From contig OZ076409.1 in NCBI GenBank assembly GCA_964187785.1, positions 65,164,001 through 65,228,000 on the forward strand: DNA of 64,000 nucleotides, read 5' to 3'. The position numbers and the translations under genes were made by a program. Shown here one piece after another: positions 13,232 to 45,210 of this stretch. Below the pieces are notes generated by a model. It searched no databases, was not told where the DNA came from, and saw only the letters and a program-made list of their open reading frames with translations. This stretch comes from Amphiscolops sp. MND2022. Taxonomy: Eukaryota. The stretch's first letter is position 1; each line of letters opens with the position of its first letter.

Positions 13232-15019
13232 CAAGGCTGGCATGTTAAATAACAGTGTTAATTAACAATACCTTATTTAACTGTTTTTAACACAAAGATT
13301 TTTAACAATGTGTTAATTATGTTAAATATTTCATTCAAATTGGGCATTTCAGATAGCCATGGGACGTGTTAAAAGTGACATATGGATACATTTTACGGAA
13401 GTTAAAGTGGGAGATGTTGTAAGAGCTCGTTGTAAGGGTTGTGATCACGAAATGGTGAACAACGCAGAGCGGATGAAAAGTCACTGGGCATCATGTTCCA
13501 AGAAAAATGATACAAGTGAAGGCCCTAGCGCCCCAAAACAGCCCCGTCTTACCCAGTCCACTTTAAGTATTCCAACAAATTCACACAAAAAGGAAGACGA
13601 AATTAACATGCTCATTGCCAAATTTATTATTGGAACCAACAGTCCATTTTTGCATGTCGAGAATAAAAACTTCTGTCGTCTTGTTGACGCCTTGCGCCCT
13701 GGAACAAAGATTCCAAATCGTCGAACACTTGCAGGTCCTCTTCTTGACAAGTTGTTTGAGCAAGAAAAGAATAAAATTGAACGACTTGTAAAAGGCCAAG
13801 TATGCACAATGATTATCGATGGCTGGTCTACAAAAATGATGGAACCAGTTATTGGAGTAGCAATAAATGTAGTGGGTAAAGGTTACCTCTTTGATACTCT
13901 TGACACTACTGGTCAGCCACATACAAGCGATTATCTCATTGATCTTAGTAAGAATCAGATAGCAAAAATAGAGAATGAGTGGGGTGTTCGTGTCAGTTCT
14001 GTTGTTACGGATAACGCCAGCAACATGGCAGGTTTTCGTCGTATGATTAAGGACCCTTCAGCACTATTGCATACATATGGGTGCCAAGCACATCATATGA
14101 ACTTACTGGCAAAGGAAATAGGAAGTAAAATGAAAGTCCCAATTGAAAAGATAGTGAAAGTGGTTAAACATTTGAGGAATCATCATGCTGAAAGTGCTTT
14201 GCTACGACAACATGAATTGCCCCGTCCCCCTCTCCCTGTTGAAACACGGTGGAACTCCCTGACCGATACTTTAAAGTATTTTGTTGACCACTGGTCGACG
14301 TTGGTTGTTGTTATCAATACAATCATGAAACACTGCTCAAAGCGACTCGTCAACTCTCAGCGAATGTCTTGAGCTTTGGTTTAATCTACGAATGAAAGTG
14401 CCCGAACAGTTTGCCCAAGAAATGAGCCATAGGTATAACAAAGCTGTATTGGATACTCCAGTGATGCTGGCAGCAAACCTACTTGACCATCGTTATGTTG
14501 GCCAAAATCTCGATTCCCAAGAAAATGCAAAAGCGCTCGCATATCTTAAAGAAATTAACGAAAGTATCATTCCAGAGGTAATGAAATACATTTCGAAAGT
14601 ACCACCATACAGCCAACATTATTTTGAAGGAACCTTTAAAGACGCTGACCCTGTATCATGGTGGACATCGGGATTAAGATTGGGGTTTGATAAAACATTG
14701 TCTGATATTGCTGTTTCGTTGGTGTCTTGTACAAGTTCTTCTGGGGGGATTGAACGTTGTTTTTCGACTTTGGGGGCAACCTATGGAAAACTCAGAACAT
14801 CGATGGGAGTTGAAAAAGCTGGCAAACTTGCATTTTTATACCGACAACTGAACCTCGACTGACTTATGTACTTAGTTAAATTCCTTAGGTAGACTTAGAT
14901 ATATCTTAGAATAGCTTAGATTTTATTTTTAACATTTTTAACAAATTTAACATGTTTTTTTCCATTTTAACTGTTTTTAACTGTTGAAAATATGTTTAAC
15001 TAACATTTTACCAGCCCTG
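13232..15019 (+). mobile_element. hAT DNA transposon (internally deleted)
   Basis: Perfect 8-bp TSD CTTCCTGT (13224-13231, 15020-15027). Imperfect TIRs CAAGGCTGG / CCAGCCCTG. Subterminal TGTTAA/TTAACA repeats. Encodes a hAT transposase. Confidence 0.92.
13359..14862 (+). pseudogene. hAT transposase with BED zinc finger, disrupted by a deletion/frameshift near 14330
   Basis: BED finger (IWIHF...CKGC...HWASC), IIDGWS, VTDNASNM, CQAHHMNL, TRWNS and C-terminal SSSGGIERCFS. The second frame resumes at ~14332 (AQSDSSTLSECLELW) and runs into ORF 14392-14862. Confidence 0.9.
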
Positions 15020-15509: not shown

Positions 15510-17672
15510 TGTTGGAACTCTCGTTCCTAGACAAACTAGCTTCTTCTAGCTCTACAGTAGGATTTCCGCTATTTTCAGTCCTGGTCGTCGAGTAACCTTG
15601 TTCTGAATTAACGCTCGATAAACTGTCAACTTTGGACGACAGGTTCTCAATCAATTTTAATATCTCACGTTGATTGAGTTCAGTGTCTTTGAGACGTTTG
15701 GAAATTCTATTCTCAATTTTATTGGATATGTCTTCAAAATCCCTTTCCGAAAGTGTGGTGTTTTCGTCGTTAACAGAGCTTGCGGTTTCTACGTCAAACT
15801 GGCTAGTCGACTGATCACTCCTCAACTTCCGTTTTTGAGATTTCTCAGGCATCTTGTAAAAATAGTGGAGGAACAATATTCCAATTAAACTTGAATCGTT
15901 ACAAACGTAATGGAGGCTTCAGTTCAATGATTTTCCAAAGTTTTCCGAAACAAAAGTAATTATATTAAGCAAAGGCAATTAACTCGATTATTACAAAAGT
16001 AAAATTTTCAGAGAATGATTAATCAAACGCACTTGAAAAATAAAATTGTCTTCTCTCTTTTCCTAATCCCGCTTCAGGTATTTATACTTTACGCTAGACA
16101 CGCGGAGAAAAACCCCGCGCGTGAATTCACACCTTGTTCACCTCGGCGTCCTTTCTGAAGCGGGGAAATCCAAATAAGGTATTCTTCCTCGGGACTCGGC
16201 ATTCGGTTTCAACCCACTTTAAAGAAAAGTGGGAATTCACTTCCTGCCGCTTCCCAATTCCGCGTCCCTTTCTTCTTCATTCCCCGCCTTTTCAAGACGC
16301 CGAAGGTGAAGTTGGCACTGAAATTCATGAACCTAGCTACTGAAGCGGGAAAAGGAAATGAAATTATCACCGAACAATCCCAAATTTTACTACTAGTAAT
16401 TTAAGGGAAACATTAAAGAAATAAACTAACAGCACTGATTTCTTCTAAATCAGATGATTATGGCCGTTAATTAGCACTTTAAATTGAAGCTAACGAAAAA
16501 GTCCTGGGTGAACGCCAGGTAACGAATTTCATTTAGAGTGACCTGGCCGTTTGACCGGGCTATTGACTCAACTATGTATTAACAAAACATTGCATGTGAG
16601 GACTGGAAAAGGCAGCACTGGGGGTTGTTTTACTATATTATCGTCAAATATCGCATTTAGCAGGGGCAACATTGTTATTAGGTTAACTATAGGGCATGTA
16701 TTAATTGAATACGTTCGGTCAGCTGTCCAGGCTCTTGTAATATTAAAGAAATTTAGCGCTCCGCCTGGGAAGTTGACTCAACTACAAGGTGGACCGAACG
16801 CGTTAAAAATACTACAAGCATCATCGATTATTACTCATTGGAAATACTTTTGGTATTTAGCTTCTTTTAAGCCACAAAACATTTATCTAGAGTTAGCATC
16901 GATTATTTGTACTTGATTGATCAGTTAGAGTGACTGAACGAGCGTCCCGGCGGTCGTCCCAGATTATAAATTTAGAACGGTCGTCCCGGTGGTCGTCCCA
17001 GATTATAAATTTAGAACGGTCGTCCCGGCGGTCGTCCCAATTATCGGGATCGACAAATCTTCAATCACACCTTTTCATGCTATAAATATCACGTTTTCGA
17101 TCTTCACTATTGAATACTGCACAATTTAAGCTTCTTCTAAGCTTTGGATTTGTATTCACTTCACACGTGACGTCACTTAATATATTAGCACTTTGATTAA
17201 TTCGATCGAGCTCCCAGGCGTGCGTCCCAGTCTTTGCTGACCGGTGGCTTGACGAGTATAGTAGCTGAGTTAATACTGCACATTCGCGCTTGGCGCTGAT
17301 TGGTTAATTAAAAGGACAGTGAGAATTAGTGTGTTTTGCTACGCAGATATTGGGACGGTAGGCTGGTCAGTGCGCTGGTTGGAATAACTTCAATCAGCGT
17401 ATTGGTCAAGCTACTGCAAACAAATCACATTTACAACAAGTTATTATTATTTAATTATTTACATATTTATGTATTTCAGGTACTGCAGAGGATTGATGAT
17501 ATTAATATTATGCACTTACAGGGTTGTTCAATATCAATGAGTGTTTGTTTGTTGATTGTTTCCTTTCAGGTTTGTGATGGTTTATTAGCTTCTTCTTGGT
17601 TAATTTCTCCATTTCTTTCCTCTGGCGTTCTCTCTGTTCTTATTATTTCACGGCCCTGTGGCGGCTGTGACA
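15510..17672 (-). repeat. 3' LTR of element A
   Basis: Direct repeat of 29185-31347 (offset 13675); duplicated ORFs in the ORF track. Confidence 0.96.
16944..17039. repeat. 39-bp tandem repeat (~2.5 copies) in U3 of LTR A (also 30619-30714)
   Basis: Unit GTCCCGGCGGTCGTCCCAGATTATAAATTTAGAACGGTC. Confidence 0.85.
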
Positions 17673-18216
17673 GTCCCCGGCTTTGATGAGAGACGTCCAT
17701 TGTGGGAAGAAGTGGTGAAATTGGCCTGAATGGGGAAGAGATGGGGGGTTGAAATATAGACTGTACCATTGAATCATAAGACATCCAGGACGAATCTGTT
17801 GACCAGTCACTTCCTGAGAAGTAACCTATCGAACTAGAGTTACTAGAGATGGGGCTGATTGTCCCATCGTGCGGCCCGTATAGCCAATTGTCCATATTCT
17901 CGTAGTTTCTAGGGGGGCTCATGAATTCGTCGTCCGGGATAATTGGGTTGAAGTTTGTAAATTTCCTGGATGGTAATGTATCTGATTGGGCTGTTTCTAG
18001 TATAGATATAGGCGCCGACTCATGATAAAGGACAATATGTTCTGTCCCAGTATTGATAATCTCGTAAATATCTTCGATAATTGGTGTTTGAGTATTTTCG
18101 CAATTATCATCAAGCGCTGTAGGTGTTGAATGTGCGCGGGGGTTTACTGGGGCAGCGTCTTGGTCGCGGTCCAAAATGAAATAATCGGTTGAGGAATTGA
18201 GTGTCGATGAATTCAT
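17566..18216 (-). CDS. Element A sense accessory ORF (acidic, Ser/Pro-rich, unknown function) extending into the 3' LTR
   Basis: Open frame of ~216 codons from ATG 18216 that crosses the LTR boundary at 17672. Same position as ORF 57083-57865 in element B, with an SDWSTD vs SDCSTD motif. Confidence 0.6.
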   Translation of the reverse strand: MNSSTLNSSTDYFILDRDQDAAPVNPRAHSTPTALDDNCENTQTPIIEDIYEIINTGTEHIVLYHESAPISILETAQSDTLPSRKFTNFNPIIPDDEFMSPPRNYENMDNWLYGPHDGTISPISSNSSSIGYFSGSDWSTDSSWMSYDSMVQSIFQPPISSPFRPISPLLPTMDVSHQSRGLSQPPQGREIIRTERTPEERNGEINQEEANKPSQT

Positions 18217-18498
18217 TTGATCCGATGAGTAAATAAATTGTATGCAATAAATAGTAATAGTTGTAAGCAATGCTGAGCGGCTGTTCTGCGGAATGGTCGA
18301 GTAATTGAATGATAATTCCGTTCTTTTCTTCTGTTCACGCCGCTTGCATGAATGGGAAAGTTTTCAGCTGGCAGACTGAATGACTTCCATTACGTCATAC
18401 TAATAGTATCGAATAATAATAATCTCATTGGTTTTACGCCACGTCTTCTGTTGGTTTATCTTGGTAGTTATCTTTTAGATTGCTTTGGATAGTAGAAA

Positions 18499-21400
18499 AT
18501 GGCTGAGTCGACGGATGAGGATGCCGCGCGCTTTATGCGTTCGCGGGAGATTGGAGTATTGGAAAGTGAGTTCGAGTCGCGGGGCGGTGATGGAGAAAAT
18601 ACGGAGTGTGAGTTGACTTCTGGGAACGAGCAAGGATTGGGTGACGACAGTTCTGCTGCTGAGGGTCAATTGGTGATCGCAGAGGAGTCAGCTGATGTTG
18701 ATCGTGAGGAAGTAGCACAGTCTCCTGTGATTGCTGGTTCTGCTGTTCGGCCCGCGGCTGGTTTCGGCCAGATTGACGAGAGTGATAGTGAAGAAGGCGA
18801 TGTTGAAGGAGATGGAAACTGTGGCAACTCGGATCATTCCACTGAGAGTGACAACAGACATTCTCTGGATTATCTTTGTGACCGACAGGGTAAGTCCTTT
18901 AGCTATTTGTTAGTGGCCAGCTAACAGTTTTATGCTAGTAAACAGACGCGTCATTCTTCTAATGGAATATGGGTTTTGTGCAGGTGATAGTGATGATCCT
19001 CGTGATGCAGATTTTGTACCCGGTAGTTCTGTCGGTGGTTCTGGTGGGCGCCGTAGCAAGCGATTGCATTCTGTTCTTCCGGATGAGGCTACGAAACGCT
19101 CTCGGGTGTCTGTTGTGGATTCATCAGATGACGAGGGTAGTGATGACTCACTGTTTCTGCAGTTGCCCAAATCCAGTAGGTATTCGTTCTGTCATGGTCG
19201 TGTTACATCAGGACTGGTGATGTTGAGTATTGATTGTTTTCCAGGTAATACTTCGCCGATGCGTGGTGCGGGTACTCACCATGAGTCTGGTCCAGCTTCT
19301 GGCGATGTGACTTGCGGGACGTCTGCCAGCGTGGGTGGCACTGTTGCTTTCGAACCTGGGCCCTCTTCTGGGAAATCTCGGGAGCGCACCCAGCATTCTC
19401 GGCCTAGTGTAGGTCTGGAGCGTTCAGTCCTCCACAATGAATGGGAGAAAGGTAACTATTATTGGCGTTATGAACTTCGCTGCTTTATTTCCATGTCCTT
19501 CTTCGTATGCTCTGTAGGCTTGTGTCTCATCCTGGTTGGTTTCTTTAGCGGGTCTCTCGGATATCCCAGCTGGAGCGGTGTGCCTGTCCTCCTCACAAGT
19601 GCTGGCTTTCGGGCAGGCTGCTGTTCGACTGGAACGGAGTCAGAAACGGGAAGATGATCGTAGTCTGTCGAAACGTTAGTTTTCGTTGCATTTGAGTTTA
19701 TTTATGTGTTTGTTGGTTGATCTATCGTCTGGTCTGTTCTCACATTACTGGTTGTCTTCTATCAGTGTATGCTTCGGTGTATTGGTTTGTTTGTGTGTTT
19801 AGGTCTCACTGAAATCGTCCGCCTGTTGAAGTCAAAAGGGATTTACATGCAGTCCAGACAGTCCCAGATAAGTGTGGAAGAAGAGACAAAACGCCGGCTC
19901 TTTGCTAAGTATAAGAGGAGGAAACTGCGACAAGTGGAGCGGAATGTACTGCGGAAGGAAATGGCTAGTCATCCATTGCCGCAGCTATTTGTGAGTCGCA
20001 GATCTGACCGGAATCCCAATGGGTTCAATTGTGCTGTGTGTCGCCGAGACGTGTCTTTCCTCAGTCGGGGTGAGCCGGAGATTTGGCGTCACTTTACCCG
20101 CAAGAGCCATTTCTTAAAGGATCGGCGTTATCGTCTGGACCACGAAGATGTACTGTATACTACCCGATTCGATGAAGTGCCTGTGTCGTCTATTTCGGCT
20201 GAGTTGCGTGCAGAGATCGAGGAGACTCCTGTGGTAGTCTTGGGCAAGAAGAATCCTTTCATAGAAGATGAGGTCGATGCGTTAGTTGGGGTGGTTTCCA
20301 ACGTGCCATCTTCAACTCTGGTTGGAGGCCTATTTGAATTGCTTCGGAGTGGGGGTTCTCATCGTTTTCTGAGACGGTTGTGGAGCCAATTTCAAGCGGC
20401 ACTTCCAGTGGATTCAAATTGCGCTCAGGCGACCTGGAGCAAGACTGAAACGTTGGTGATTATTGGACAGACCCTATATCCCCGGATTCTCCGCCGGGTG
20501 CAAGGATGGGTGAAGGATTCCTTTTCCAGTGTTAGTCTGCGGGAGGATCGTGATGGTTTGCGTTTCAATGTACACTGTTTTGCTAGTGGTACTCTGCGTG
20601 AAGTTTGCATTTTGTGGGAACCTAACTCGCCGGGTCTCTGTGATTCTGAAATTATTGGTCTGACGCGGATATTTGCAATTCTACCAGCCGGGCAGTCACC
20701 TGTTTGCCTGCGAGGGTTTTCATCGACTCTCTTCAATGTGGTGACCGAATGGTGTGTCGAGCAGTGTCGCCCCAAGCCCATGTTCATTTCTGAATATACC
20801 CCAAAAGTATTCAAAGAGCATGTGCAAGAAGCTGGTAAAAATGGTTCTAGTGCTCTGGATTGCTTCGCTCTTATGGACTATCTGTTGTTGCGTTTACAAC
20901 GTGCTGTAAATCAGTCTTGGATGCTTGGACTTGCGACCTTGCGTCGTTGCATTCAACAGCGAGATATCCCTTTCACCTCTCTCAGTGTTGTTCTTGATGA
21001 GATCGTCAGTCATTGGGGAGATATTAAATTGTTCTTGGGGGAGGGTGGTGTTGTCTCGTCATCCCGGAGCAAAGTTCCGCAGGACCTGAGTCAGATGGTG
21101 TTGGCCGATGACCATATTTTGCCCCGACTGTGTGTGCTTCAAGTGCTGGTTCTGTGTTTCATGGCCAATTTTGAGAAACAGTTCGTGATGGAAATTACCG
21201 ACTACAGTTGTCGAAATTATAGTGAATTCTGCTTCTTTTATTGGAGTCTTCTTGGCAAAGTTAAGAAGCTGTCTGAACTTCCTGAAATTGATGCCTGGAG
21301 CGAGTATGTCGGCAAACCCTTGACTACCTGGTCAAACCTCTCATATGCGGAGTGTTTGGTTGGAGAGCCCATTGTGGTGAAGGCATTGGTTGGATCTACT

Positions 21401-22426
21401 GCTGCACTACGTCGTTCTTTCCTTCGCGAGGGTCACTCGCTGCTCATGGGATTTTTGAGAGTGTTGAATGAATCTGCCTTTATGAATTCTCGCCTGTCCT
21501 CCAGTTTGAGTTGTTTTTCGCCGGATATGTTGCTTCTTGGCGAGGAATCATATACTGTTGAGCTCTTTCGTGGTCTGGTTGCTTGTTACCTAGAGTGTGG
21601 ACGTTTGACTGATGTAGAGGCCGAAGGGTCCTGTAATGAATTCAAGTCCTTCTTAGTGGAATTGCGTCGACGGAATCGCCGAGTGGTGTCCAACATCAAA
21701 GACACTTTTAGCTTCATGCGGGAGTCTGAGGCTTTCGGTTGTCGGGACCATTTGTCGCGTGTTGTTCAGTTGTCCTCAGTTCTGGTGGTACCCCGTGAGG
21801 TGTCATATCCTGATGTGGATATCTCGTTGAGTGGTGTAGCTGTTCCAGCAAAGATTCTTACTTCAGCTATTCTCTCTGTGCAGTCTTACGTTTCCTTCTC
21901 TGGGTTCAGTTCCGGGGAGTTGTTGACAAAAGACTGTCTGGATGATTTAAAGGTCAATCTCCCTGCTGGAAAGAGTTTCATCGATGACGTTAGTTTCTCT
22001 CCATGGACATCGGTATATCAGCATTGCCACCAGGAGTTGTACCGCAGTTTGCGTGATCGTTTCGACGCGTATTTCCTGGAACAGGTGGATGATTGGCGTC
22101 ATCGTCTGGGCACTCTGTCAAAGATGGCTGTTGCAGGTACTGGTGGTTCTAGTGTTGCGCCGTCTGCCGATGCTGCTGTTGTCAGTCCGCATGCTGGGGC
22201 AAGTGTGTCCCGTGATGCTGGTAGTATTCAAGATGTTTCTCCCAGTACGCCACCTCCTTCAGCTGCTAATGTTGTCGATAAGTCGCTACTGATGTGTAGT
22301 CCTGTGCGGTCAAGTGACGTTACCCGGGTTTTGCAGCAAAGACGCCAGGAACGGAAAGAAATGTTGTCTTCGAATCAAGCTTCATCGAGTGCTTCAAAGG
22401 ACAAGAAGAAAGGAAAGAGGCGATGA
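18499..22426 (+). CDS. Element A antisense spliced gene: C2H2 zinc finger plus hAT-transposase-like body lacking recognisable catalytic motifs (~1175 aa predicted)
   Basis: Predicted exons 18499-18889, 18984-19175, 19245-19408, 19518-19674 and 19803-22426, all GT-AG and phase-consistent (introns 2 and 3 least certain). C-x2-C-x16-H-x5-H finger. Colinear similarity to the element B antisense gene. Confidence 0.8.
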
Positions 22427-22748
22427 TGATTTCGTAATTTGTTGGAACGTTGAACTGTGTATCTTTATAGTTTGGTCTTTATTGTTGTTGGCACTTTGTC
22501 TACTTTGTTCTGTATTATGTATGTTGTTGAATGGGCTGAAGTCTTTTAATCAAATGTAGTTAGTATTGCAGCCAAAGAAAAGGGAATGGATATATTTGTC
22601 CGTAGTGGGCATGGAGAGTCTGTAGTATATTTTTGGCTCTTTGTATTGTTTTTCCTTGAGTGCGTAGACGAGTTGTAGGGATTTGAGTCAGTTTTAGGTC
22701 AATTGAGTGAGTAGTAGGTGTACCATTTCATGAATTCATATTGGAAGT

Positions 22749-25700
22749 TTATTCATTTGAGCTAACAACCATTGGGTTGTAGTAGGCGTAGTCCCTTTTC
22801 CAATTTGAAGGGGGGTTGCTGCGAAGGTTATATTTGCCTTTGCGGGGGGAACTAGGCTCTGGGTTTGGGTTGGGTTCTGGTTGGGATTCCTGTTGTTCGG
22901 GTTGGGGTTCCGTTAGGATATCGTGGGTGTCATCCTGGGCAATGTTTTCTAAGACGTCATGACTATCTGTCGGGTTGATTGCCGATTCGTTGTTGGAATC
23001 GTGGTTATGGGTCATCACAAAGTGTTCAAACCCTGATTGCCAGGCTAGGGCGTATAGGTCATCGTGTAGGGTTTCAACTTCATCGTCTGGTTGAAAGTCC
23101 TTGGTTTGAACTTGTATATCGGGAAGGCGATTTTTCGTGGGACATGGTTTCAGTCGTATTCTGTGTAGAATTTGGGTCTTGTTCGTTTGTAATTTACGAA
23201 CTAGGTAGTTGTTGTTGGGAAGGGTTTTAACTACTACGAATGGTCCTGTCCATAAATACTCGCGGAAAGGTAGTTTCGATCCCTGGTTGTTTGCCTGGGG
23301 GTGTAAGGCGTAGCAGTAGTCGTTTGCTGCTAGGGGGTGGGCAGAAGCTTTTTTATCGTAGTACTGTTTGTACCGTATGTAGGAGTGGAGGAGGTGTTTG
23401 GTTACTGATTGGTGTATCATCCGGGTCTTCTGGACGACTTCTTCGCCTATGTCTGTTTTTGGGTTTTGGGTTTGGTTCTGTTTGAGACCGAACTTTAAGT
23501 CAAGCACATTGTATGGTATTCTGCCATGGAATACTCTACTGGGTTCGCACCCTAGTGCTGAGTGGTAGGTTGTGTTGTAGTTTAGTGTGGCGGTTGGTAC
23601 GAACTGGTGCCACATTGTTCTCCTTTCTCCTGTTGATATTTTCAGGGCTTCTTTTAAGGATGCATGACAGCGTTCTAGGATACCAATTGTTTGGGCATGT
23701 TTTGTAGTTGCGTGTCTCAATTGGATGCCTAGAACGCGTGTGGTGTCAGCCATTACTGCGGACATGAATTGAGTTCCTTTGTCAGTTATGATCGTTGTGG
23801 GCAGGTAAGCATGTCTTGTCATTATGTCTACCAGTACTCTTGCGATCGAGCGTGCATCTATTTTGGTGACACAATAGGTAAATAGGTAGCGGGAAAAGAC
23901 GTCCATGGCGGTGACTATCGCTGTGAATCCGTTGGATGGCTCGTCGAAGGGGACGATGTCCATTTGTAGGGCATCTTCCGGTCCCATTGCCAGTTTGGAC
24001 GTGTCGATCATTGGTGGGGTTAGGAGGCGATTGTCTGTTCGTTTTGTTTGCATGCATTTCATGCATTGGTTGATATGTTTGGCTATCCTTGCTGCGAGAC
24101 TTGGGTAGTAATACTTTTCTCTGCATTGTTGTATTACTTTCGTTATTCCCGGGTGTTTGTTGTGCATTCCATGGTGTGCCTCGATGAAGGAGTTGACCAG
24201 TTGCTCCGGGAGTAGTACTTGCAGGTGTTTGACTGTTCCGGTTTCTCCGAAGTACTGCCGGTATAGCAGCCCGTCCTTGAGTATGATTCTCGATTCTTGC
24301 GCTGTGTAACGGAGTGCCCTGTGGTCTGTGGCCATCAGGTGTTCATCGTATGGTTCCTTGAGGAGGCGCAGTTTGTAGTTTCTGAGGACACTGTCTTGGT
24401 CCTGTTGGTGTCGCATGTCAGTTGGGAGGGTGTTTTCTTTGTCTTCGGTGGTTTTGTTGTGTCTTGTTATTTCCGTTTGAAATATGACTGTGGTGTCTTC
24501 TGTTTGGACTGTTTCATTATTTGCTTCTTCTCCTGGCGTTGGCGGGGTGTCGTTCCCTAGAATTTTCTTGCGGGCTCTTTGCTTCCTCTCCCAAATCTGT
24601 TCTTCGGTTTCAATATCATCGTCGGGGAGGAAGTAGAACTGTTCCTCTTCTGCGACGTTGGAGGATTGAATGTGCACCTCTATTGGTGTTGTTTGAATGT
24701 CGTCTCGGATCAAGAGTTGGACTTTTTCCTTTGGGTCTAGGTCAAGTCGGGAAAGGAAATCAGCTGCGGTGTTCATGCGCCCTGGGACGTGGGCGATCGT
24801 AAAGTTGAATTGTAGGACGAAATCGCAGGCGTTCCACAAGGCTGGTGGTATTATTTTGGTTTGAAAAAACCGTGTGACGGACTTGTTGTCTGTTAGGACG
24901 ATGACCGGTTTGGTCGATCCCCACAATATGTGGCTGTATTCCATGAAGGCGAAATATATAGCCAAGAATTCTTTGGCATATATTGACATTTTGATTTGGG
25001 ACGGAGAGAATGTCTTGGAACCAAACGCCACCGGGGCGTAAGTCTTTTTAACTGAGGTCAGTTTTTCATCAGCGTTTTCTTCAATCATGAGGGCGTAGCC
25101 TGCATTTTTGAAGTTCGCGTCTGTCATGAGGACGTACTGTTTGTTGGGTAGTGGTTGTTTCAGCCATAGCCCACAAGCGTTGTCAAGTGCCTTGTTGATG
25201 TTGTCGAATGTCCCGATGATCTCGTTTGTGATCTTGATTGGTTTGTCTGCCTTGACTAATTCGTGGAAGGGTGCTATCTTTTCGGAGAGGCGAGGTATGT
25301 AGTTCCGATAATAATTAACGAAACCAATATACCTCTGGAGGCCCTTTTTGGTTTTTGGGAACGACAGTTTTTGTAGGTAGTTCTTGATCTTGTGACTCTG
25401 TGGGGCGATTCCTTCGGGTGAGACTGTTCGTCCAAGGAATTCGACTTCCTTGGCACCGAACTGACATTTAGCCATTGTCAGACGCAGACCTGCTTCTCTT
25501 ATGCACTGAAAGACCTCACGCAGGTTGTTCTTCAGCTCCTCGGCAGTATGGGTAGCTATCCCGATGTCGTCGACGTACTGGGCGCACTTGTCGGCTTTGA
25601 TGACTCGGTCAAGGTACTCCCGCATAAAGCTCGAGAAGGAGGAGAGAGATCTGCTGAGCCCTTGTGCGAGTCGCAGGTAGGCGAATGTCCGACTGGCAAA

Positions 25701-28124
25701 GTTGAACGCCAGGAGTTCCACTGATTTCTGGTCCGCCATTTGCAGGACATGGTAGGCTTGAGAACAGTCAAGCTTGCAAAACAGTTTCTTTCCGGCTAAA
25801 TGCTGAGCTGCATCCGAGAGGGTGCTCACAGGGTGATTATTGTTTATATAATCGTCGGAAATGAGGTTGTTGATCTTTCGTAAGTCAACTAGCAATCGTA
25901 GGCGTCCGTTTGGTTTTCTTTGGGCAAATATTGGGCTTGCGTACTTGCTGGAAGGGAGCGTGGTGATTATGCCGTAGTAGTGCATTAACGCCAATTCGAC
26001 TGTCAAGTCGTCTTTCAGGTTGACTGGGCAGGGTAGGCTTTGAGTGTACGCTGGCTGTTCGGATTTGGGGGTGAGCTTTATTTTGAATTCGTTGTTGATT
26101 CCGATATCAAGGCGGTGCCTTGCGAAGATATCGTTGTATTCTACAAGGATTGCTTCTATGTCCTTTTTGTCTTCATCACTGAGTTGTGAATCCGTCCACT
26201 TGAAATTGGATAGGAAAGTTGCTCTGTCCTCAGGGCTGTCATGAGGATTGAGTTTCTGGATGTTTTCCAGTTCTTCTATCTCTCTCAGTATCCTGCTCTG
26301 GATAGGTGTGTGTGTTGATGGGTCTCCTGGGTTTTCTGGTGTGGGGAACCAGAAATTTTGAACAGTCTGAGGCTTTTCAGACGATTTGAGGAGTTCGTTT
26401 ACGTATTCTAGCGCCTGTTCGGAATCGTCTTCTGCTAATACCTTTAGGGCTGCAGAGTTGAGTGGGTGGAGTTGCTTGGCTTCCTGGGGGGATAGAATGG
26501 TGAATTCTGCAAGATTTGTGTTCTTTTTGAGGGTGAATGGATTTGGAGATGTGTTGGTAACCCTGATTTCAATTTTGGAGTTTGTAACTGTTGATAGAGA
26601 GCTGGCTACTACCAGTTGGTGTTCTCCGGAGTATGGTTCAGTAGGGTTGATGATTCCTGTGGTGTTTGTCAGGGTACGTAGGTTGATGCCGGCTTCAATT
26701 GTTACACACTGGTCGGGCATGATGGTGAGTTGGGTTTTGGTAGTGACTTTGTGTTGTCTTGAGATTGTCTCGTTATCGTCTGCAGAAATTGCATAAGTCA
26801 GGTGAGGGAAATGTAAGAGGGCCTGACTGACGTCGAGGATTGCGCTATTGTTTTTAAGAAAGGTTAGTCCGAGGATGGGCCCTGTCATCTTTGTGGCTAC
26901 GATGAACGTCTCTTTGAACGTCCAGTCGCCTAGTTCAAATTGTAGTTGAACTGTTTTTGTGGGGGTTTCTATCTCGCCGTTTGCGACCTGCAATTTAAAT
27001 GTTGGTGGATCCATTTCCTTGAGGATGTTGTCTGGGCTTACTGTTTTGATTTTCTGGAACTCACTTTCTGGTAAGCAGTTGACGAGTGCTCCGGAGTCAA
27101 CAAGTGCGTCAACTGAAATGTTGTTGAAATCCATCGGGGCGAAGAGCATTTTCCTTTTCTTTTTCAGATTGATGGCCGAAAAAATTGGTATGCATTTTTC
27201 GCTTGTTTCTGGGTCCGTAATTGCAATTTCATGCAATTGTTTGTTGGTTTGAATCCATTCTTCATCTTGTTCTAGGTTGGTTGGCTCTTCTCTTGGGGTT
27301 TGGGTAGTGATGAGTGGGCTGTTTGTCGCTGTTTTATCTTCTGTTTGCTGGTTGAATTCGCAGGTCAGAGTTCGTTTGACGCGGCGAGTTCTCGGTTGTG
27401 TTGTGGGTGGACTTGCAATTGTTTGGTCCCCGGCTTTTGTGTCGTCAACCAGGGTTTTAGGGGTGGAGTATTTATGTTCAGGACTCTCTGGACTGGAGGG
27501 GGACGACGTCATAGCTGCCCGGATTTCATTGGGGGTGGCTGGGAGTTTCGTGGGTGACTGGAAGTCAACCTGTGGTGATTGATTGTTGTGTTTGAGGATT
27601 GACTTGAGGGAAGTCGTTGGAGGTGTTACGATCACAGTGATTTCTGTGTCGTATTCTTCTTCAGCCTGTGGTTCGGGAGTATGACTGAGGTCGTCTTTCC
27701 TTCTTGGAGTTGTCGAGATGTCCATGTTGGTTTTGGCTATGAATTCATGAAATGGTACGTTGATTGACTGTCTGAAGACAAGGTTTGTTGAGTCATATAG
27801 AGTGTCGTTGTAGTATGGGTCGCATTCGAAGTCGGGGTCGTAGATGTAAGTTTCAGGTGTGGAGCTGGGAAGTAATGGTCTGCGTGTTGTGTTGTATTGG
27901 GTGGGGTTTTGGGTGTACCAGTCTGGATAGGGGAGTTTGTCCAAGGTGTTTTTGTTGAATTTGATGATGCGTCTTATGAGCCATCGTCGCTGCCAGTCGA
28001 TCGATGGTTCACCTGAGCATTCCATAAATAATTCCTTGTCGAAGTCCTTCGGGGGTTCAGATATGGTGTAGTATCTGAAGTCGGTGTAGTCCCCGAAGCG
28101 AAGACGTGGCTTTAGTAGTTTTTT
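22749..28124 (-). CDS. pol: Element A Pol (protease, RT, RNase H, integrase) expressed by -1 frameshift
   Basis: LVDSGA protease, YVDD RT, TDANF/KEFLAI/TDNK/ADFLSR RNase H, HHCC + DDE integrase and WTGPF. The frame is open upstream of ATG 28025 to the AAAAAAC site (28124-28118). Confidence 0.95.
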   Translation of the reverse strand, partial: KKLLKPRLRFGDYTDFRYYTISEPPKDFDKELFMECSGEPSIDWQRRWLIRRIIKFNKNTLDKLPYPDWYTQNPTQYNTTRRPLLPSSTPETYIYDPDFECDPYYNDTLYDSTNLVFRQSINVPFHEFIAKTNMDISTTPRRKDDLSHTPEPQAEEEYDTEITVIVTPPTTSLKSILKHNNQSPQVDFQSPTKLPATPNEIRAAMTSSPSSPESPEHKYSTPKTLVDDTKAGDQTIASPPTTQPRTRRVKRTLTCEFNQQTEDKTATNSPLITTQTPREEPTNLEQDEEWIQTNKQLHEIAITDPETSEKCIPIFSAINLKKKRKMLFAPMDFNNISVDALVDSGALVNCLPESEFQKIKTVSPDNILKEMDPPTFKLQVANGEIETPTKTVQLQFELGDWTFKETFIVATKMTGPILGLTFLKNNSAILDVSQALLHFPHLTYAISADDNETISRQHKVTTKTQLTIMPDQCVTIEAGINLRTLTNTTGIINPTEPYSGEHQLVVASSLSTVTNSKIEIRVTNTSPNPFTLKKNTNLAEFTILSPQEAKQLHPLNSAALKVLAEDDSEQALEYVNELLKSSEKPQTVQNFWFPTPENPGDPSTHTPIQSRILREIEELENIQKLNPHDSPEDRATFLSNFKWTDSQLSDEDKKDIEAILVEYNDIFARHRLDIGINNEFKIKLTPKSEQPAYTQSLPCPVNLKDDLTVELALMHYYGIITTLPSSKYASPIFAQRKPNGRLRLLVDLRKINNLISDDYINNNHPVSTLSDAAQHLAGKKLFCKLDCSQAYHVLQMADQKSVELLAFNFASRTFAYLRLAQGLSRSLSSFSSFMREYLDRVIKADKCAQYVDDIGIATHTAEELKNNLREVFQCIREAGLRLTMAKCQFGAKEVEFLGRTVSPEGIAPQSHKIKNYLQKLSFPKTKKGLQRYIGFVNYYRNYIPRLSEKIAPFHELVKADKPIKITNEIIGTFDNINKALDNACGLWLKQPLPNKQYVLMTDANFKNAGYALMIEENADEKLTSVKKTYAPVAFGSKTFSPSQIKMSIYAKEFLAIYFAFMEYSHILWGSTKPVIVLTDNKSVTRFFQTKIIPPALWNACDFVLQFNFTIAHVPGRMNTAADFLSRLDLDPKEKVQLLIRDDIQTTPIEVHIQSSNVAEEEQFYFLPDDDIETEEQIWERKQRARKKILGNDTPPTPGEEANNETVQTEDTTVIFQTEITRHNKTTEDKENTLPTDMRHQQDQDSVLRNYKLRLLKEPYDEHLMATDHRALRYTAQESRIILKDGLLYRQYFGETGTVKHLQVLLPEQLVNSFIEAHHGMHNKHPGITKVIQQCREKYYYPSLAARIAKHINQCMKCMQTKRTDNRLLTPPMIDTSKLAMGPEDALQMDIVPFDEPSNGFTAIVTAMDVFSRYLFTYCVTKIDARSIARVLVDIMTRHAYLPTTIITDKGTQFMSAVMADTTRVLGIQLRHATTKHAQTIGILERCHASLKEALKISTGERRTMWHQFVPTATLNYNTTYHSALGCEPSRVFHGRIPYNVLDLKFGLKQNQTQNPKTDIGEEVVQKTRMIHQSVTKHLLHSYIRYKQYYDKKASAHPLAANDYCYALHPQANNQGSKLPFREYLWTGPFVVVKTLPNNNYLVRKLQTNKTQILHRIRLKPCPTKNRLPDIQVQTKDFQPDDEVETLHDDLYALAWQSGFEHFVMTHNHDSNNESAINPTDSHDVLENIAQDDTHDILTEPQPEQQESQPEPNPNPEPSSPRKGKYNLRSNPPSNWKRDYAYYNPMVVSSNE

Positions 28125-29527
28125 GGCTGGTATTGTGGTTGTGCCACGGTTTGTGGCTGCTGATTTGCTGAAGGTTGTTGGATAGTTTCGGGTGCAGAGT
28201 GTTGTGGTAGGGGTATACTGTTGGCGCCTGTTGATTTAGGCATTTTCCACCATGTAGGGCGGTTTGCCCAGTTCGCCCCAGAATAGCAGTCTTTAGTCTC
28301 GTGGCTTAATTTGCCACATGTTTCGCAGGGATCGGTGATGTTATTGCTGGGGGGTTTTTGGTTCCGTTTGTCTCGGTTTGTCTTCCTGCAGTTGCGGAGG
28401 AGGTGGCCCTGGTGTCCGCAGCCAAAGCACGTGCTTGCAGTTTTCGGGTGTCTCCCCTGATTGGATGTGTTGGCGGGTTCGACATTGTGTATGCCGGTAA
28501 ATGTAGTGGATTCTGGATTTGCCAATCCGTTGAGTTCCATCTCCCGCTCTAGGTGCTGGACCATCGTTTCATATGATGCTGTTTCGAGGCGTGCCTGATT
28601 TAACACTCTTTTGAGATGTATCGGCATTTTTGCGTAGAAGGAGGTTTCTATAAAGCGGGGTGCATCGTCGGCGTATGCCTCTTGGGCAAGTTTCTGGTAG
28701 TTCTCCAAGAAATCTTGGAATGTTTGGTTCGCCGGGTCGAATGTGAGGTTTTCCCACTTACACCTAGCAGTGGCTATTGACTGGGTTTTTACATATCGTC
28801 GTCTGAATCCGGCGATGATGTCGTTCAGGTTGGTTTTGGTTGTTTCGGTCATGTTCCGAAAGGTTTGCAAGGCGTCTCCTCGCAGTAGGGAGTGGAAATA
28901 ATGTATTTTCTCTTGCTCCGTTATTTGGGGATGGACCTTCAAGCTTGTTTGAAACAAATCCTCGAAGAGTTCAAACTTTTCGTTTTTGCCGTCGAATGTT
29001 GGCATTGTCGTGGCAAGCGTTTTTGGTAGACGGGGTAATTGTGCTGTCTGTTGTTGTGTTGCATACAGGGATTCTAACAGCTTGTCAATGATTTCGTCGG
29101 AGTGCCTCTGGTTTGGAGGCGGCAGGCTCGAAGACCGGGGGTGGGTGTTGCTGGAGGTCGGTTCGCTAATTACTCCTGTCACCATGTTGGAACTCTCGTT
29201 CCTAGACAAACTAGCTTCTTCTAGCTCTACAGTAGGATTTCCGCTATTTTCAGTCCTGGTCGTCGAGTAACCTTGTTCTGAATTAACGCTCGATAAACTG
29301 TCAACTTTGGACGACAGGTTCTCAATCAATTTTAATATCTCACGTTGATTGAGTTCAGTGTCTTTGAGACGTTTGGAAATTCTATTCTCAATTTTATTGG
29401 ATATGTCTTCAAAATCCCTTTCCGAAAGTGTGGTGTTTTCGTCGTTAACAGAGCTTGCGGTTTCTACGTCAAACTGGCTAGTCGACTGATCACTCCTCAA
29501 CTTCCGTTTTTGAGATTTCTCAGGCAT
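28112..29527 (-). CDS. gag: Element A Gag, starting inside the 5' LTR
   Basis: FDGKNEKFELFEDLF capsid-like region and two CCHC knuckles (CFGCGHQGHLLRNC, CETCGKLSHETKDC). ATG at 29527 lies within the LTR (29185-31347). Confidence 0.92.
   Translation of the reverse strand: MPEKSQKRKLRSDQSTSQFDVETASSVNDENTTLSERDFEDISNKIENRISKRLKDTELNQREILKLIENLSSKVDSLSSVNSEQGYSTTRTENSGNPTVELEEASLSRNESSNMVTGVISEPTSSNTHPRSSSLPPPNQRHSDEIIDKLLESLYATQQQTAQLPRLPKTLATTMPTFDGKNEKFELFEDLFQTSLKVHPQITEQEKIHYFHSLLRGDALQTFRNMTETTKTNLNDIIAGFRRRYVKTQSIATARCKWENLTFDPANQTFQDFLENYQKLAQEAYADDAPRFIETSFYAKMPIHLKRVLNQARLETASYETMVQHLEREMELNGLANPESTTFTGIHNVEPANTSNQGRHPKTASTCFGCGHQGHLLRNCRKTNRDKRNQKPPSNNITDPCETCGKLSHETKDCYSGANWANRPTWWKMPKSTGANSIPLPQHSAPETIQQPSANQQPQTVAQPQYQPKNY
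29173..29184 (-). promoter_or_regulatory. Primer-binding site TGGTGACAGGAG (element A)
   Basis: Immediately follows the 5' LTR end (...CCAACA) and is identical over 12 nt to the element B PBS. Confidence 0.85.
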
Positions 29528-31347
29528 CTTGTAAAAATAGTGGAGGAACAATATTCCAATTAAACTTGAATCGTTACAAACGTAATGGAGGCTTCAGTTC
29601 AATGATTTTCCAAAGTTTTCCGAAACAAAAGTAATTATATTAAGCAAAGGCAATTAACTCGATTATTACAAAAGTAAAATTTTCAGGGAATGATTAATCA
29701 AACGCACTTGAAAAATAAAATTGTCTTCTCTCTTTTCCTAATCCCGCTTCAGGTATTTATACTTTACGCTAGACACGCGGAGAAAAACCCCGCGCGTGAA
29801 TTCACACCTTGTTCACCTCGGCGTCCTTTCTGAAGCGGGGAAATCCAAATAAGGTATTCTTCCTCGGGACTCGGCATTCGGTTTCAACCCACTTTAAAGA
29901 AAAGTGGGAATTCACTTCCTGCCGCTTCCCAATTCCGCGTCCCTTTCTTCTTCATTCCCCGCCTTTTCAAGACGCCGAAGGTGAAGTTGGCACTGAAATT
30001 CATGAACCTAGCTACTGAAGCGGGAAAAGGAAATGAAATTATCACCGAACAATCCCAAATTTTACTACTAGTAATTTAAGGGAAACATTAAAGAAATAAA
30101 CTAACAGCACTGATTTCTTCTAAATCAGATGATTATGGCCGTTAATTAGCACTTTAAATTGAAGCTAACGAAAAAGTCCTGGGTGAACGCCAGGTAACGA
30201 ATTTCATTTAGAGTGACCTGGCCGTTTGACCGGGCTATTGACTCAACTATGTATTAACAAAACATTGCATGTGAGGACTGGAAAAGGCAGCACTGGGGGT
30301 TGTTTTACTATATTATCGTCAAATATCGCATTTAGCAGGGGCAACATTGTTATTAGGTTAACTATAGGGCATGTATTAATTGAATACGTTCGGTCAGCTG
30401 TCCAGGCTCTTGTAATATTAAAGAAATTTAGCGCTCCGCCTGGGAAGTTGACTCAACTACAAGGTGGACCGAACGCGTTAAAAATACTACAAGCATCATC
30501 GATTATTACTCATTGGAAATACTTTTGGTATTTAGCTTCTTTTAAGCCACAAAACATTTATCTAGAGTTAGCATCGATTATTTGTACTTGATTGATCAGT
30601 TAGAGTGACTGAACGAGCGTCCCGGCGGTCGTCCCAGATTATAAATTTAGAACGGTCGTCCCGGTGGTCGTCCCAGATTATAAATTTAGAACGGTCGTCC
30701 CGGCGGTCGTCCCAATTATCGGGATCGACAAATCTTCAATCACACCTTTTCATGCTATAAATATCACGTTTTCGATCTTCACTATTGAATACTGCACAAT
30801 TTAAGCTTCTTCTAAGCTTTGGATTTGTATTCACTTCACACGTGACGTCACTTAATATATTAGCACTTTGATTAATTCGATCGAGCTCCCAGGCGTGCGT
30901 CCCAGTCTTTGCTGACCGGTGGCTTGACGAGTATAGTAGCTGAGTTAATACTGCACATTCGCGCTTGGCGCTGATTGGTTAATTAAAAGGACAGTGAGAA
31001 TTAGTGTGTTTTGCTACGCAGATATTGGGACGGTAGGCTGGTCAGTGCGCTGGTTGGAATAACTTCAATCAGCGTATTGGTCAAGCTACTGCAAACAAAT
31101 CACATTTACAACAAGTTATTATTATTTAATTATTTACATATTTATGTATTTCAGGTACTGCAGAGGATTGATGATATTAATATTATGCACTTACAGGGTT
31201 GTTCAATATCAATGAGTGTTTGTTTGTTGATTGTTTCCTTTCAGGTTTGTGATGGTTTATTAGCTTCTTCTTGGTTAATTTCTCCATTTCTTTCCTCTGG
31301 CGTTCTCTCTGTTCTTATTATTTCACGGCCCTGTGGCGGCTGTGACA
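29185..31347 (-). repeat. 5' LTR of element A
   Basis: Direct repeat of 15510-17672. Candidate TATAAATA on the minus strand at 29761-29754, ~230 nt upstream of the gag ATG. Confidence 0.96.
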
Positions 31348-32239
31348 CCTTTATGTTGAGTTTGTTTTCTTTAAAAAGTGTGGGGGGAGGGGGGGGGAAG
31401 GAAAAAGCCGATTTCTCTTCTAATCAGGCCAGTTCGAAACAATTTTTGAAATTTTCCATTGAAAAAAAATGATGGTGGGGGCGGGGACAGAAGCCCAAAT
31501 TGGTAACGACTTAGGAAAGACGTTCAACAAATATTATATTCTCTCAATTATCAAACAATTACATTGATGATACAAAAACATGACATATCACTTTCGAAAT
31601 CTGGTAAATTTTGGCGTTTTTGAGCTTCGTGAAATTTTCCCAAGTTTTCCTGTTAATCCCTGCTGAAATATAGTGACATAGAATTCAAGTCGTACCATCA
31701 AAGTTCACTACTTTTTTCAACTCTCATCCCCTGACTCTAAAGACCTTTCAGATCGGAATTCGCTATATTTTTTTCATTTCTCATTTAAAGGAAGTCAACA
31801 GCTGGAGTTGACTTTTGAGTCATAAAAATACATGGATCAAAATCACGGTCTAAAAGAATATTTTTTGTTCAATAGTAAATTTTACCTCAGTGAAGTTAAC
31901 GCCCGGTACCTGGAAAAGCTTTCACTCAAAATAATAATAGTTTCAAAACATTTGAGAGATGTGCATCAGTTTTCGAAGGTGGGGAGAAACAGAAAAAAGC
32001 AGTTTTTTTTATGATTAAAGTGTTGACCTTATTCGATCTTGAATTGTTAATAACTTGAACTGAATAGTAACCGTTTTGATTGACACGAGACATCCCAAAC
32101 TCTTTTCTATTTTATTTGATTCAACATCAGTGAATGTGAAGTTTTACAATTTTTAACGATTACATTATAATTACAATTTTATATATACTTCAACGATATC
32201 AAATGAAGAGTGGAGTTTGATCATGCTTTTTGGTTTTAG

Positions 32240-40300: not shown

Positions 40301-40358
40301 TCTTACGTACAATACAGTATTACATTCCCAAACTTCTTTATTCCATTGGTATACAACA
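34362..40358 (+). mobile_element. Ty3/Gypsy LTR retrotransposon C (6.0 kb, short LTRs)
   Basis: 205-bp LTRs 34362-34566 and 40154-40358 (1 mismatch seen), 5-bp TSD ATTCC, PBS TGGCGCAGTCAG at 34567 (tRNA-Ser-like), PPT AGGGGGGGAA at 40144-40153. Confidence 0.96.
34580..39878 (+). pseudogene. Element C gag-pol, single frame interrupted by TGA (35459-35461) and a +1 frameshift near 39157
   Basis: Gag knuckles, IIDSGS protease, AWLDD RT, TDAS/ELELLAV RNase H and integrase DDE. The frames on either side of the TGA are continuous. After 39159 the +1 frame runs open to 39878. Confidence 0.88.
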
Positions 40359-43431: not shown

Positions 43432-45210
43432 TGTCGCAGGCTGCCGCCTGTGATGGCAACAACTATACGACCTCGGGATACGGACAAGAAATTACCCCAG
43501 GTACATTACCCATTTATTAAACTCAAAACTGCAATTGCCAAGACTCGCTTTAACTATTTTAGTTTATTTATCCAAACTGAATATTAGTCTGTTAAGTACA
43601 ATTTGGAATTGTCCAAATTGGGATGTTTTATGTTGCAAATGTGTTGAATACAATTACAGCAGAGCAATGTAATATAAAGCAACTGTAAGGCAGTATAGGA
43701 AACGTGTTCAAGTGATGCTAAGCGCTGATCCAAAAGCGTCACTTGAGCGCATTGTCTTATCCAATCAGAGCGCTGTATTTGTTGTGCTATATTAGCTTTG
43801 TTGCTATCATGGCCTAATTAGGCCTATTTCCTAAATAACGCTTGCTGTACTGTATTACTTGGTCAAACGGCCGGTTCCGGCCATTTTGTACAAATAGTTA
43901 ATTGACGTTGCTTTGATAGTAATAACCGGACCTATTATTTCAAATTCACTTTAGTCCACTTGTTGATGCTATAATTATACTCCCCGTCTGCCTAAATGTG
44001 AGAAATGAGCATAATAATAATTGCAGTTGGAATGAAGCCTCTCCCCACCTTTTCCCAGTGCAAGACTGAAACCCCGGACATGGCCAGTTTCGGCCTCGTG
44101 AAAATAACTTGCACCAATTTCACTGCTGCGTTTGTTGATCATGATTTATTCAATTTGATACGTGAATTAGACGGCACATGGCAAGCCGCGTGGCAGCACG
44201 TGCTGTCTCAACACCTTGTAATAAGGAATGCAATGAACAGTGCATTGTTAACATTTTTGTTATTTGTATTGATGTTAAGTACGTTAGTTATTTGTTTGAT
44301 GTTAACTCACGGTCGATGTAAGTTGGGCACGCCGCCTGTCACACCTATAACCACGTGATGTTTGGAATAACATTTGACCTTACTAGGACGAATTCCTGAA
44401 AGTCTTTGAGGTGCTAACTATCTAACTGTATGTCGGTCCTCATGACCATTAAGGAATTTGTCGATTACAAATGGAATTTGATCACACTTGTAAGGGTATA
44501 TATAGCAATGTTTCCTTGAGGTGATTATTAAATCCATACCGATTGTTCAGATCAGTTGATTTGTTTCGCATTTATAGATTGCAAGACTAGATTACCAAAT
44601 AAAATATTCAACCTTGAAATCTTGATGCCTACTACAAGGAAACAAAAGAAAGCTAGAAAGTCTAGAGGAATTGAGATGCTTTCTGACTTGGAGAACCTTG
44701 ACATAATGCTAGGGGAAAACCACTTCAATAGAAATGAAAGGGACGGAAGTGTTAGTAGCAATTTCGGCAGAAGGCCTGGTAGTACCTCTGCAGATGAACT
44801 AGGAAGTAATGGTGAAAACAGGCACTCAGCCACAAGGGACATTGATCCTGGTAATAATGCCGATTATGGTCGAAACTCAATTGGTGGCAACTCTAGTGCT
44901 GAGATTAACAGGTTGTCAAGTGAATTGAACTCTAGATTATCAAGAGAGTTAGATGATATGATGTGTAGTGTCAATTCTCAGATCCAAAGGGCAATTAGTG
45001 ATGCAATAAGCAACCAAGTACTCCCACAAATCCAATCCGCCCTTAGTGCCGGGTCAGGACACATGACACAAAACAGATGGGACATTCCGTCCGAGAGACC
45101 GGAAATAAATTCCGAAGGACTGCAAAATACTAACCCCAAAGACAGTTCAACTAGCAAGCATAACCATGACCATCAGAATGATGGTGGTATCAATTTAAAT
45201 GCTTACGACA
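43432..45210 (+). repeat. 5' LTR of element B
   Basis: Direct repeat of 57777-59555 (offset 14345). Candidate TATATATA at 44497-44504, upstream of the gag ATG at 44625. Confidence 0.96.

Follow-up and report, generated by a model that had tools for sequence, protein, structure and literature searches.

The antisense gene of a Ty3/Gypsy element

We analysed a 64-kb stretch of the Amphiscolops sp. MND2022 genome (assembly GCA_964187785.1, contig OZ076409.1, positions 65,164,001 to 65,228,000), hereafter the window, within which all coordinates are given. It contains two long Ty3/Gypsy elements, A on the minus strand and B on the plus strand. Our subject is a gene carried by element A on the strand opposite gag-pol. 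A sequence-only reading had described this gene as a spliced, catalytically dead hAT transposase, captured and repurposed by the retrotransposon. The features of element A and its antisense gene are listed below; LTR is long terminal repeat and dN/dS is the ratio of nonsynonymous to synonymous substitution rates.

15510-17672 (-): 3' LTR, from repeat comparison
17566-18216 (-): fourth gene, sense, 216 aa, no Pfam match, end inside the 3' LTR
18405-22680 (+): exchangeable cassette, 50-nt windows sampled at both ends
18499-18889 (+): antisense gene exon 1, starting with ATG, acidic, predicted disordered, dN/dS 0.22-0.29
18890-18983 (+): intron 1, GT..AG, 94 nt
18984-19175 (+): exon 2, dN/dS 0.15-0.18
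19245-19451 (+): exon 3, dN/dS 0.44-0.50
19549-19674 (+): exon 4, dN/dS 0.08-0.11
19803-22426 (+): exon 5, with zinc finger, helical region, hAT-like core and low-complexity basic tail
20030-20110 (+): C-x2-C-x16-H-x5-H zinc finger with conserved ligands, located where a hAT would have its BED finger
20408-21913 (+): Hermes-aligned region (residues 202-703 of the exon-5 query), with a predicted RNase H-like core that an all-helical insertion domain interrupts
22749-28235 (-): pol, with Pfam matches to protease, reverse transcriptase, RNase H and integrase
28112 to about 29530-29593 (-): gag, start inside the 5' LTR
29185-31347 (-): 5' LTR, from repeat comparison

Element A, a Ty3/Gypsy LTR retrotransposon, is young. 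Its LTRs are 2163 nt each, 99.954% identical, with TG...CA ends, and a 5-bp target duplication (CCTTT) flanks the element. The primer-binding site is TGGTGACAGGAG. Gag is present and the pol domains follow the Ty3/Gypsy order of protease, reverse transcriptase, RNase H and integrase. By coordinates and strand, the antisense gene is a plus-strand gene lying between pol and the 3' LTR, as first described, and back to back with the fourth gene. Joining its five exons gives 1179 residues, against an earlier estimate of about 1175, with no internal stop. The introns are 94, 69, 97 and 128 nt, all GT..AG. We also recovered the acidic N-terminus (24% Asp or Glu in residues 1-200), the finger and the basic C-terminal tail of the earlier description.

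The exon structure was derived by comparative genomics, from conservation across copies, and splicing is predicted on that basis. The 1.07-Gb host genome was searched and copy counts are lower bounds. Exon 5 of A had at least 52 matches at 60-100% identity, 44 of the 52 being free of stops. The last exon of B had at least 117 and a more distant homolog at least 150 (34-39% identity among those listed). Of 30 copies compared, those at the best-matching A-type loci, 27 kept all four GT..AG pairs and 19 an unbroken joined frame. Ten diverged copies (L018-L027) kept exons 1-4 constant in exact length while the introns were altered; in all ten, intron 1 was shorter by 1 and intron 2 longer by 1. 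An alternative exon-4 acceptor at 19517 was rejected. Its AG is not conserved and the resulting frame hits a stop at 19657.

Selection was measured against three diverged copies, for which the synonymous divergence (dS) of exon 5 is 1.0-1.6. The dN/dS ratio was 0.07-0.08 for exon 5, 0.08-0.50 for exons 1-4 and about 0.3 for the tail. Segments of the finger and core gave 0.03-0.08 (one C-terminal segment had saturated dS). Control frames on the opposite strand gave 0.18-0.20, 1.05-1.11 and 3.3-3.5. Within 15 young copies, the corresponding ratio of polymorphisms (pN/pS) was 0.28, from 71 nonsynonymous and 78 synonymous variants. A dN/dS test had been suggested with the sequence-only reading; it detects purifying selection, with the core at 0.05-0.08. 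We conclude that the antisense gene is almost certainly a real gene.

The position of the gene is also constant. Pol adjoins it on the opposite strand at 31 of 31 A-type loci, 31 of 31 B-type loci and the single third-lineage locus (63 in total), although the 62 A- and B-type loci fall into few subfamilies and are not independent. At the third-lineage locus an 851-nt piece at the predicted offset encodes integrase. The same position is found in lineages about 20-25% identical. Like an antisense accessory open reading frame (ORF) of the aORF-3R kind, the gene is antisense, lies between pol and the 3' LTR and is kept in most copies.

These data bear on a simple alternative. The gene could be a passenger, either a decaying nested DNA transposon without benefit to its carrier or a protein whose resemblance to hAT transposases, described below, is a chance fold match. 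Nested insertions are common and sequence methods find no hAT match. Against this stand the low core dN/dS at a dS near or above 1, the conserved splice sites, the stop-free exon-5 matches and the shared position in such distant lineages. Splice conservation and dN/dS largely refute the passenger reading, and its chances are next to negligible.

Intron 1 is 90-96% conserved, compared with 73-81% in the flanking exons. It can be aligned even in the 60% subfamily, and an inverted repeat surrounds a TGGCCA palindrome. Hence, judged by its conservation, intron 1 probably holds a cis element. An RNA hairpin acting as a dimerisation or packaging signal was not supported; folding z was 0.0 to 1.3 in five strands, which is not significant.

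Predicted fold and putative catalytic positions of the antisense protein

We modelled the exon-5 query with AlphaFold2 using a 39-sequence alignment. The predicted local distance difference test score (pLDDT) was 72.8 and the predicted template modelling score (pTM) was 0.64. Residues 241-345 of the model form three antiparallel strands, a helix, a strand and a helix, followed by a large all-helical region. The top ten Foldseek rows were all Hermes (E 1.8e-5 to 4.7e-4; template modelling score, TM, 0.28-0.34 by query). Consistent with this, a VIA comparison with 48,161 representatives identified Hermes as the sole chain with Z>=8 (Z 12.7). The runner-up, at Z 6.1, was the ISCth4 transposase. 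The Hermes alignment spans 398 residues with a root mean square deviation (rmsd) of 5.1 and places model residues 202-703 on Hermes 133-609. Re-alignment gave Z 12.7-13.8 across six Hermes entries. In BFVD, the first match was a protein without a name (TM 0.08) and the second a Pandoravirus hAT-domain protein (probability 0.99, E 1.5e-3).

Language-model neighbours in the ESM Atlas were, after two clusters without names, Dimer_Tnp_hAT, DUF4371, FAM200/ZBED5 and zf-C17orf113 (0.89-0.92). Residues 160-460 alone had neighbours from the same hAT families at 0.87, which we treat as a lead only. Together, the modelled structure and these neighbours support the hAT origin proposed earlier, which we regard as very probable. 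A homodimer prediction for residues 45-345 scored 0.00; the alignment was unused and the fold uncertain. We rejected the possibility of an env-like gene, whose orientation would be sense and not antisense; a signal peptide was not part of this check. The most hydrophobic 19-mer of exon 5 (Kyte-Doolittle score 1.96) is a helix of the modelled insertion domain.

The finger ligands are conserved. In non-redundant rows, the two Cys are present in 15/20 and 16/20 and the two His in 18/19 and 19/20. Folded alone, the finger has pLDDT >90. The Pfam model for the BED finger matched none of 21 finger-region rows.

Catalysis by Hermes requires D180, D248, R318, W319 and E572 (PMC6027215). Hermes also requires a CxxH motif (PMC4763223). 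The corresponding columns of the antisense protein were assigned from strand ends and VIA range offsets, not by residue-level superposition: 245-249 for the first Asp (D1), about 303 for the second (D2), about 331-334 for CxxH, 372 for Trp and 663-672 for Glu. They were examined in an alignment of 201 rows of homolog pieces. In the D1 zone (244-250), Asp occurs in at most 12 of 58 rows at any column, and the turn columns 248 and 250 are acidic in 15 of 25 non-redundant rows. In the D2 zone (301-305), no column is acidic in more than 2 of 27 non-redundant rows, and the D2 column of element B is Ser. A CxxH at any place between D2 and Trp is seen in only 6 of 57 rows. W372, the putative Trp of the TRW motif and equivalent of W319, is invariant (22/22 non-redundant rows) and is preceded by P, A or S, not R. 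No helix is modelled at 661-681 in the Glu zone; E665 is found in 14% of rows, D670 in 22 of 82, and column 672 is Thr in element B. The 28 control hATs gave D 26/27, D 28/28, C 28/28, H 28/28, R 28/28 and E 22/24.

The sequence-only reading had found no recognisable catalytic motifs. That description stands for both Asp residues and for CxxH. It does not seem to hold for the Trp of TRW, which appears to be kept, and the Glu zone contains a mostly acidic residue, D672. The Glu position is therefore ambiguous as aligned here. Since neither catalytic Asp nor CxxH is conserved, and Glu is ambiguous, the protein probably lacks DDE catalysis, a loss supported by the inferred column mapping.

Cassette exchange and the possible role of the protein

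In copies such as L019-L022 and L024-L026, identity to A is mostly 94-100% on both flanks, as far as about 18404 on one side and beyond about 22700 on the other. The interval between is about 50-86% identical to A in sampled windows. Comparison of L001 with L019 gives 76% identity for the gene core and 99% for pol; for L001 and L018 the values are 82% and 65%. One copy with a 68% antisense-gene allele has a fourth gene 94% identical to that of A. As different alleles reside in 99%-identical backbones, we conclude that the antisense gene is swapped as a cassette between backbones.

No terminal inverted repeat (TIR) remnant was detected. Inverted matches between the two flanks of the gene reach no more than 10 nt in A and 8 nt in B; the check covered inverted matches, with no separate search for an 8-bp duplication. 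Capture and repurposing, as proposed from the sequence, are supported by purifying selection, by the fixed position beside pol and by this lack of TIR remnants. Outside the assembly, homologs comprise 39 ENA proteins and 777 cluster representatives at E<=0.001. The best 150 of the 777 were inspected, and the remaining 627 could include active donors. Metagenome and viral contigs yielded no confirmed relative with genomic context. A search for fused forms of 1559-4450 aa found none, which is weak evidence.

We give about even odds to the following interpretation: a captured hAT transposase has become a nuclear DNA-binding accessory factor, either an activator or an anti-silencer. Briefly, an ancestor of the Ty3/Gypsy clade would have gained a complete hAT transposase gene, probably by a reverse-oriented hAT insertion between pol and the 3' LTR. 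Loss of the terminal repeats would then have followed. Conservation of Asp, Asp and CxxH is absent across the family, in the register used here, and would have been lost too. The finger and the whole predicted transposase fold persist under strong purifying selection, alongside the acidic N-terminal arm and basic tail. Transcription of the gene may start from an internal promoter of its own, with the fourth sense gene in back-to-back orientation. Because the gene is antisense to the genomic RNA, its introns would not be spliced from packaged RNA and would survive reverse transcription. The protein would enter the nucleus, where the finger may bind DNA of its own element and the acidic arm may raise or protect transcription. 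Whole alleles would have moved between backbones by recombination, of which the mosaic copies are the visible product and template switching the presumed mechanism. Such movement is as expected for a specificity or counter-silencing factor. The captured transposase gene probably helps the element to control its own activity.

Several observations weigh against this interpretation, in addition to the dependence among loci noted above. The profile match to hAT transposases proposed as a check was not obtained. No Pfam family matched the A or B pieces at a meaningful level (E<=1 scan), hAT Pfam models matched 0 of 32 homologs and 0 of 21 finger-region rows, and a PDB sequence search with the antisense protein found no match. 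Alignment by hhalign to 28 DUF659/ZBED1-type hATs, a comparison set without the closer DUF4371-type lineage, gave probabilities of at most 0.6%. The model is only moderate, given its pLDDT and pTM, a TM of 0.31 by query and 0.44 by target and the rmsd of 5.1; VIA itself cautions that chance alone can give helical models a Z of about 13. On its own, the finger matches no structure significantly (Hermes ranks first, at E 1.8), and the sole VIA rows over the finger are those of RNA enzymes, TUT4 (Z 4.2) and TUT1 (Z 3.7). No binding site was found for the protein; the LTR and promoter motifs were equalled by 53/200 and 31/200 shuffles, respectively. Finally, D672, in the catalytic Glu zone, is acidic in 70 of 83 rows. 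A search of the genome with PF14291 gave no match, and neither did the control for that search.

The last of the contrary points, D672, raises the possibility that the protein is still active as a nuclease or recombinase, its active site rebuilt (for instance from D672 and the turn acids 248/250), and perhaps mobilises or converts the cassette. The invariant W372 and the sharp borders of the exchanged cassette fit this idea, and domesticated Kat1 is described as a hAT that stayed active (PMC4763223). Set against it are the lack of a conserved Asp in either Asp zone and of a conserved CxxH, the Thr and Ser that element B has at column 672 and the D2 column, and the absence of TIR remnants. Ordinary template switching accounts for the swaps. 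We regard an active enzyme as quite improbable.

The TUT4 and TUT1 matches could point to a different role, with RNA, perhaps double-stranded, as the ligand of the finger and with suppression of small-RNA silencing, or the export or packaging of genomic RNA, as the task of the protein. Sense and antisense transcripts of the element would overlap by design, and the H-x5-H ending of the finger resembles that of matrin/JAZ-type fingers. The TUT4 and TUT1 Z values are, however, at background level, and conservation is no weaker across the whole DNA-handling transposase fold than in the finger. We consider an RNA-directed function rather unlikely.

A third possibility is that the dead transposase serves as an integration tether or import factor, binding chromatin or a target sequence and guiding the integrase complex. 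Chromodomains or accessory targeting proteins guide integration in other elements. The DNA-binding architecture and basic tail of the protein are retained. Element A itself lies inside the terminal inverted arm of an adjoining hAT element, which is a single case and, in a repeat-rich genome, an insertion into a repeat is expected. Nuclear import has been proposed as a role for antisense ORFs (PMC7264820). The gene swaps independently of integrase, which argues against tight co-adaptation, and a tether is in our view unlikely.

The protein might also act as a decoy or dominant-negative factor, sequestering host hAT-derived repressors or competing with hAT transposases to the indirect benefit of the element. 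The full predicted fold is kept without conserved catalytic residues, the host genome encodes at least 150 hAT C-terminal domains, and alleles are exchanged. Mixed oligomers seem unlikely given no detectable sequence similarity to the tested hATs, and we judge this explanation improbable.

Returning to the captured accessory factor, its features can be set beside known systems. Like hAT transposases such as Hermes, the antisense protein has the predicted order of finger, helical region and RNase H-like core with a helical insertion domain inside it. Some 400 residues align structurally with Hermes 133-609, and the putative W319 equivalent is retained. The language-model neighbours place it nearest to a DUF4371/FAM200-ZBED5/C17orf113-like branch. 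Unlike Hermes and other hATs, it does not conserve D, D, CxxH or R, has no predicted helix at the expected Glu position and no TIR remnants, is only about 10% identical, carries an extra acidic N-terminal arm of about 300 aa and is mobile only within a retrotransposon.

The gene sits like an antisense accessory ORF. Those of Retand (TRP28/PF04195), Grande (gene23), RIRE2, PvRetro13 and Boty (brtn) are likewise antisense, between pol and the 3' LTR, family-wide and conserved, with a proposed regulatory role (PMC7264820, PMC11963269). Grande GENE23 is described as nuclear with its own promoter (PMC7264820). The TRP28 domain is given for 97% of Retand clusters, in an account whose accessible text does not contain the word 'intron' (PMC11963269). 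All of these are plant or fungal and unrelated in sequence to the present protein, which has no Pfam match to PF04195 at E<=1; here the donor class can be identified, by structure. Boty brtn is reportedly multi-exon, and introns alone thus may not be new.

Among host proteins, DDE-less hATs have been domesticated as ZBED/DREF-type proteins. DAYSLEEPER, a DDE-less hAT DNA-binding protein, has kept the hAT fold and finger, lost its catalytic motif and TIRs, and has a nuclear DNA-binding role (PMC8616336). Unlike such host-domesticated hATs, the owner of the present gene is another transposable element, with high copy number and allele exchange. Functional likeness may extend to VANC of VANDAL, a family-specific anti-silencer, and TnpA of En/Spm, which are element-encoded proteins acting on their own family (PMC6719617, PMC13547354). 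Their carriers, in contrast, are DNA transposons, and they descend from proteins of the MAIN/plant-mobile-domain type. By its proposed role the antisense protein would resemble a domesticated hAT regulator, and by its position its gene falls among the antisense accessory ORFs. The protein is probably no active hAT transposase, and it is no TRP28 protein. A tentative extension, which we hold at somewhat less than even odds, is that a class II transposase was domesticated by a class I element and serves it as an exchangeable module for sequence-specific counter-silencing or activation, a retrotransposon counterpart of VANC. Its alleles would be traded in an arms race with host silencing, and it would have helped a clade of ~14-kb four-gene elements to reach hundreds of copies.

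It is an open question where LTR retrotransposons obtained their antisense accessory genes. A review from 2020 gives the origin of the plant and fungal antisense ORFs as unknown and takes their lack of similarity to other transposable elements as an argument against a nested-transposon source (PMC7264820). The present family provides a case with an identifiable donor, a hAT transposase visible only by structure. A literature search covering neither subscription papers, Repbase entries nor supplements found no hAT-derived accessory gene in an LTR retrotransposon. The family would show one transposon class domesticating another, and by what route a retroelement can carry a gene with introns. Other orphan antisense ORFs may thus deserve a second look at the level of fold. 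Function can be tested by comparing the natural alleles that sit in near-identical backbones.

Element B and other features of the window

Three further features were used for comparison.

43432-59555 (+): element B, LTRs 43432-45210 and 57777-59555, CCAGT duplication
51795-56019 (-): element B antisense gene, exons 56019-54028, 53941-53456, 53354-53220, 53108-53027 and 52957-51795
13359-14862 (+): ordinary hAT transposase gene, a comparison and not the donor lineage

The last of these had been called a true hAT, and it encodes DUF659 and Dimer_Tnp_hAT in two frames. Element B contains gag, pol, the antisense gene and a sense ORF (57083-57865). Its pol protein is 52% identical to that of A over most of its length. 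The five exons of the B antisense gene encode 1285 aa. An A-family profile was compared with the 1162 ORFs of the window, and only A itself and three B ORFs passed the inclusion threshold (E 1.6e-9, 1.3e-7 and 1.1e-6). All three are colinear with A, in agreement with the homology first noticed, and the A/B motif pairs then listed occur in the translations. Compared with a 77% subfamily, the B gene has constant core-exon lengths and conserved GT..AG pairs.

Intron placement differs between the genes. The four introns of A all lie in its N-terminal arm, outside the core, whereas the four of B lie in the folded core. Fragments of divergent homologs frequently end at profile positions ~200-210 and ~390-410 and start at ~430-450, matching the B introns. 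This coincidence suggests that introns were lost in the A lineage.

A third Gypsy element (34362-40358) has a short LTR (205 nt) and a pol 21-26% identical to that of A, compared with 52% for B. It has no match to the antisense-gene profile. The pol of element B (46325-51541) has a weak dUTPase-like similarity at residues 353-433 (E 0.21), between protease and reverse transcriptase.

Both elements have a fourth sense gene without a significant Pfam match (17566-18216 (-) in A, 57083-57865 (+) in B). In each it stands back to back with the antisense gene and its end falls within the 3' LTR. Host-genome matches number at least 150 for A and at least 147 for B, are mostly open frames and fall in identity to 60% and 70%, respectively. 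Element A is inserted within the right terminal inverted arm of the adjoining hAT element (15509/15510; 31348-31385), and the arm resumes beyond the far side of element A.

Two short motifs are shared between the elements. An 11-mer lies upstream of both antisense genes (18367, 56501), with no clear excess over shuffles. The LTR motif mentioned above is a 12-mer common to both LTR types (16545, 30220, 43861, 58206). It occurs 803 times in the genome, compared with 69 for a control pattern, and marks LTR pairs ~13.7, 14.4 and 5.9 kb apart. It was rejected as a specific binding site, since pairs ~5.9 kb apart are too close for gag-pol and the antisense gene. LTR A also has a 39-nt tandem repeat at 16936-17039 and 30611-30714, with five copies of a 9-mer. 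The 9-mer was likewise rejected, having no LTR B counterpart and no excess over shuffles.

No clear polypurine tract precedes the 3' LTR in element A or B. In both elements gag starts within the LTR, its frame crossing the primer-binding site (29185-29530 in A, 44625-45210 in B). Hence, each 3' LTR also carries a gag start, seen in element B as the ORF at 58877-59587.

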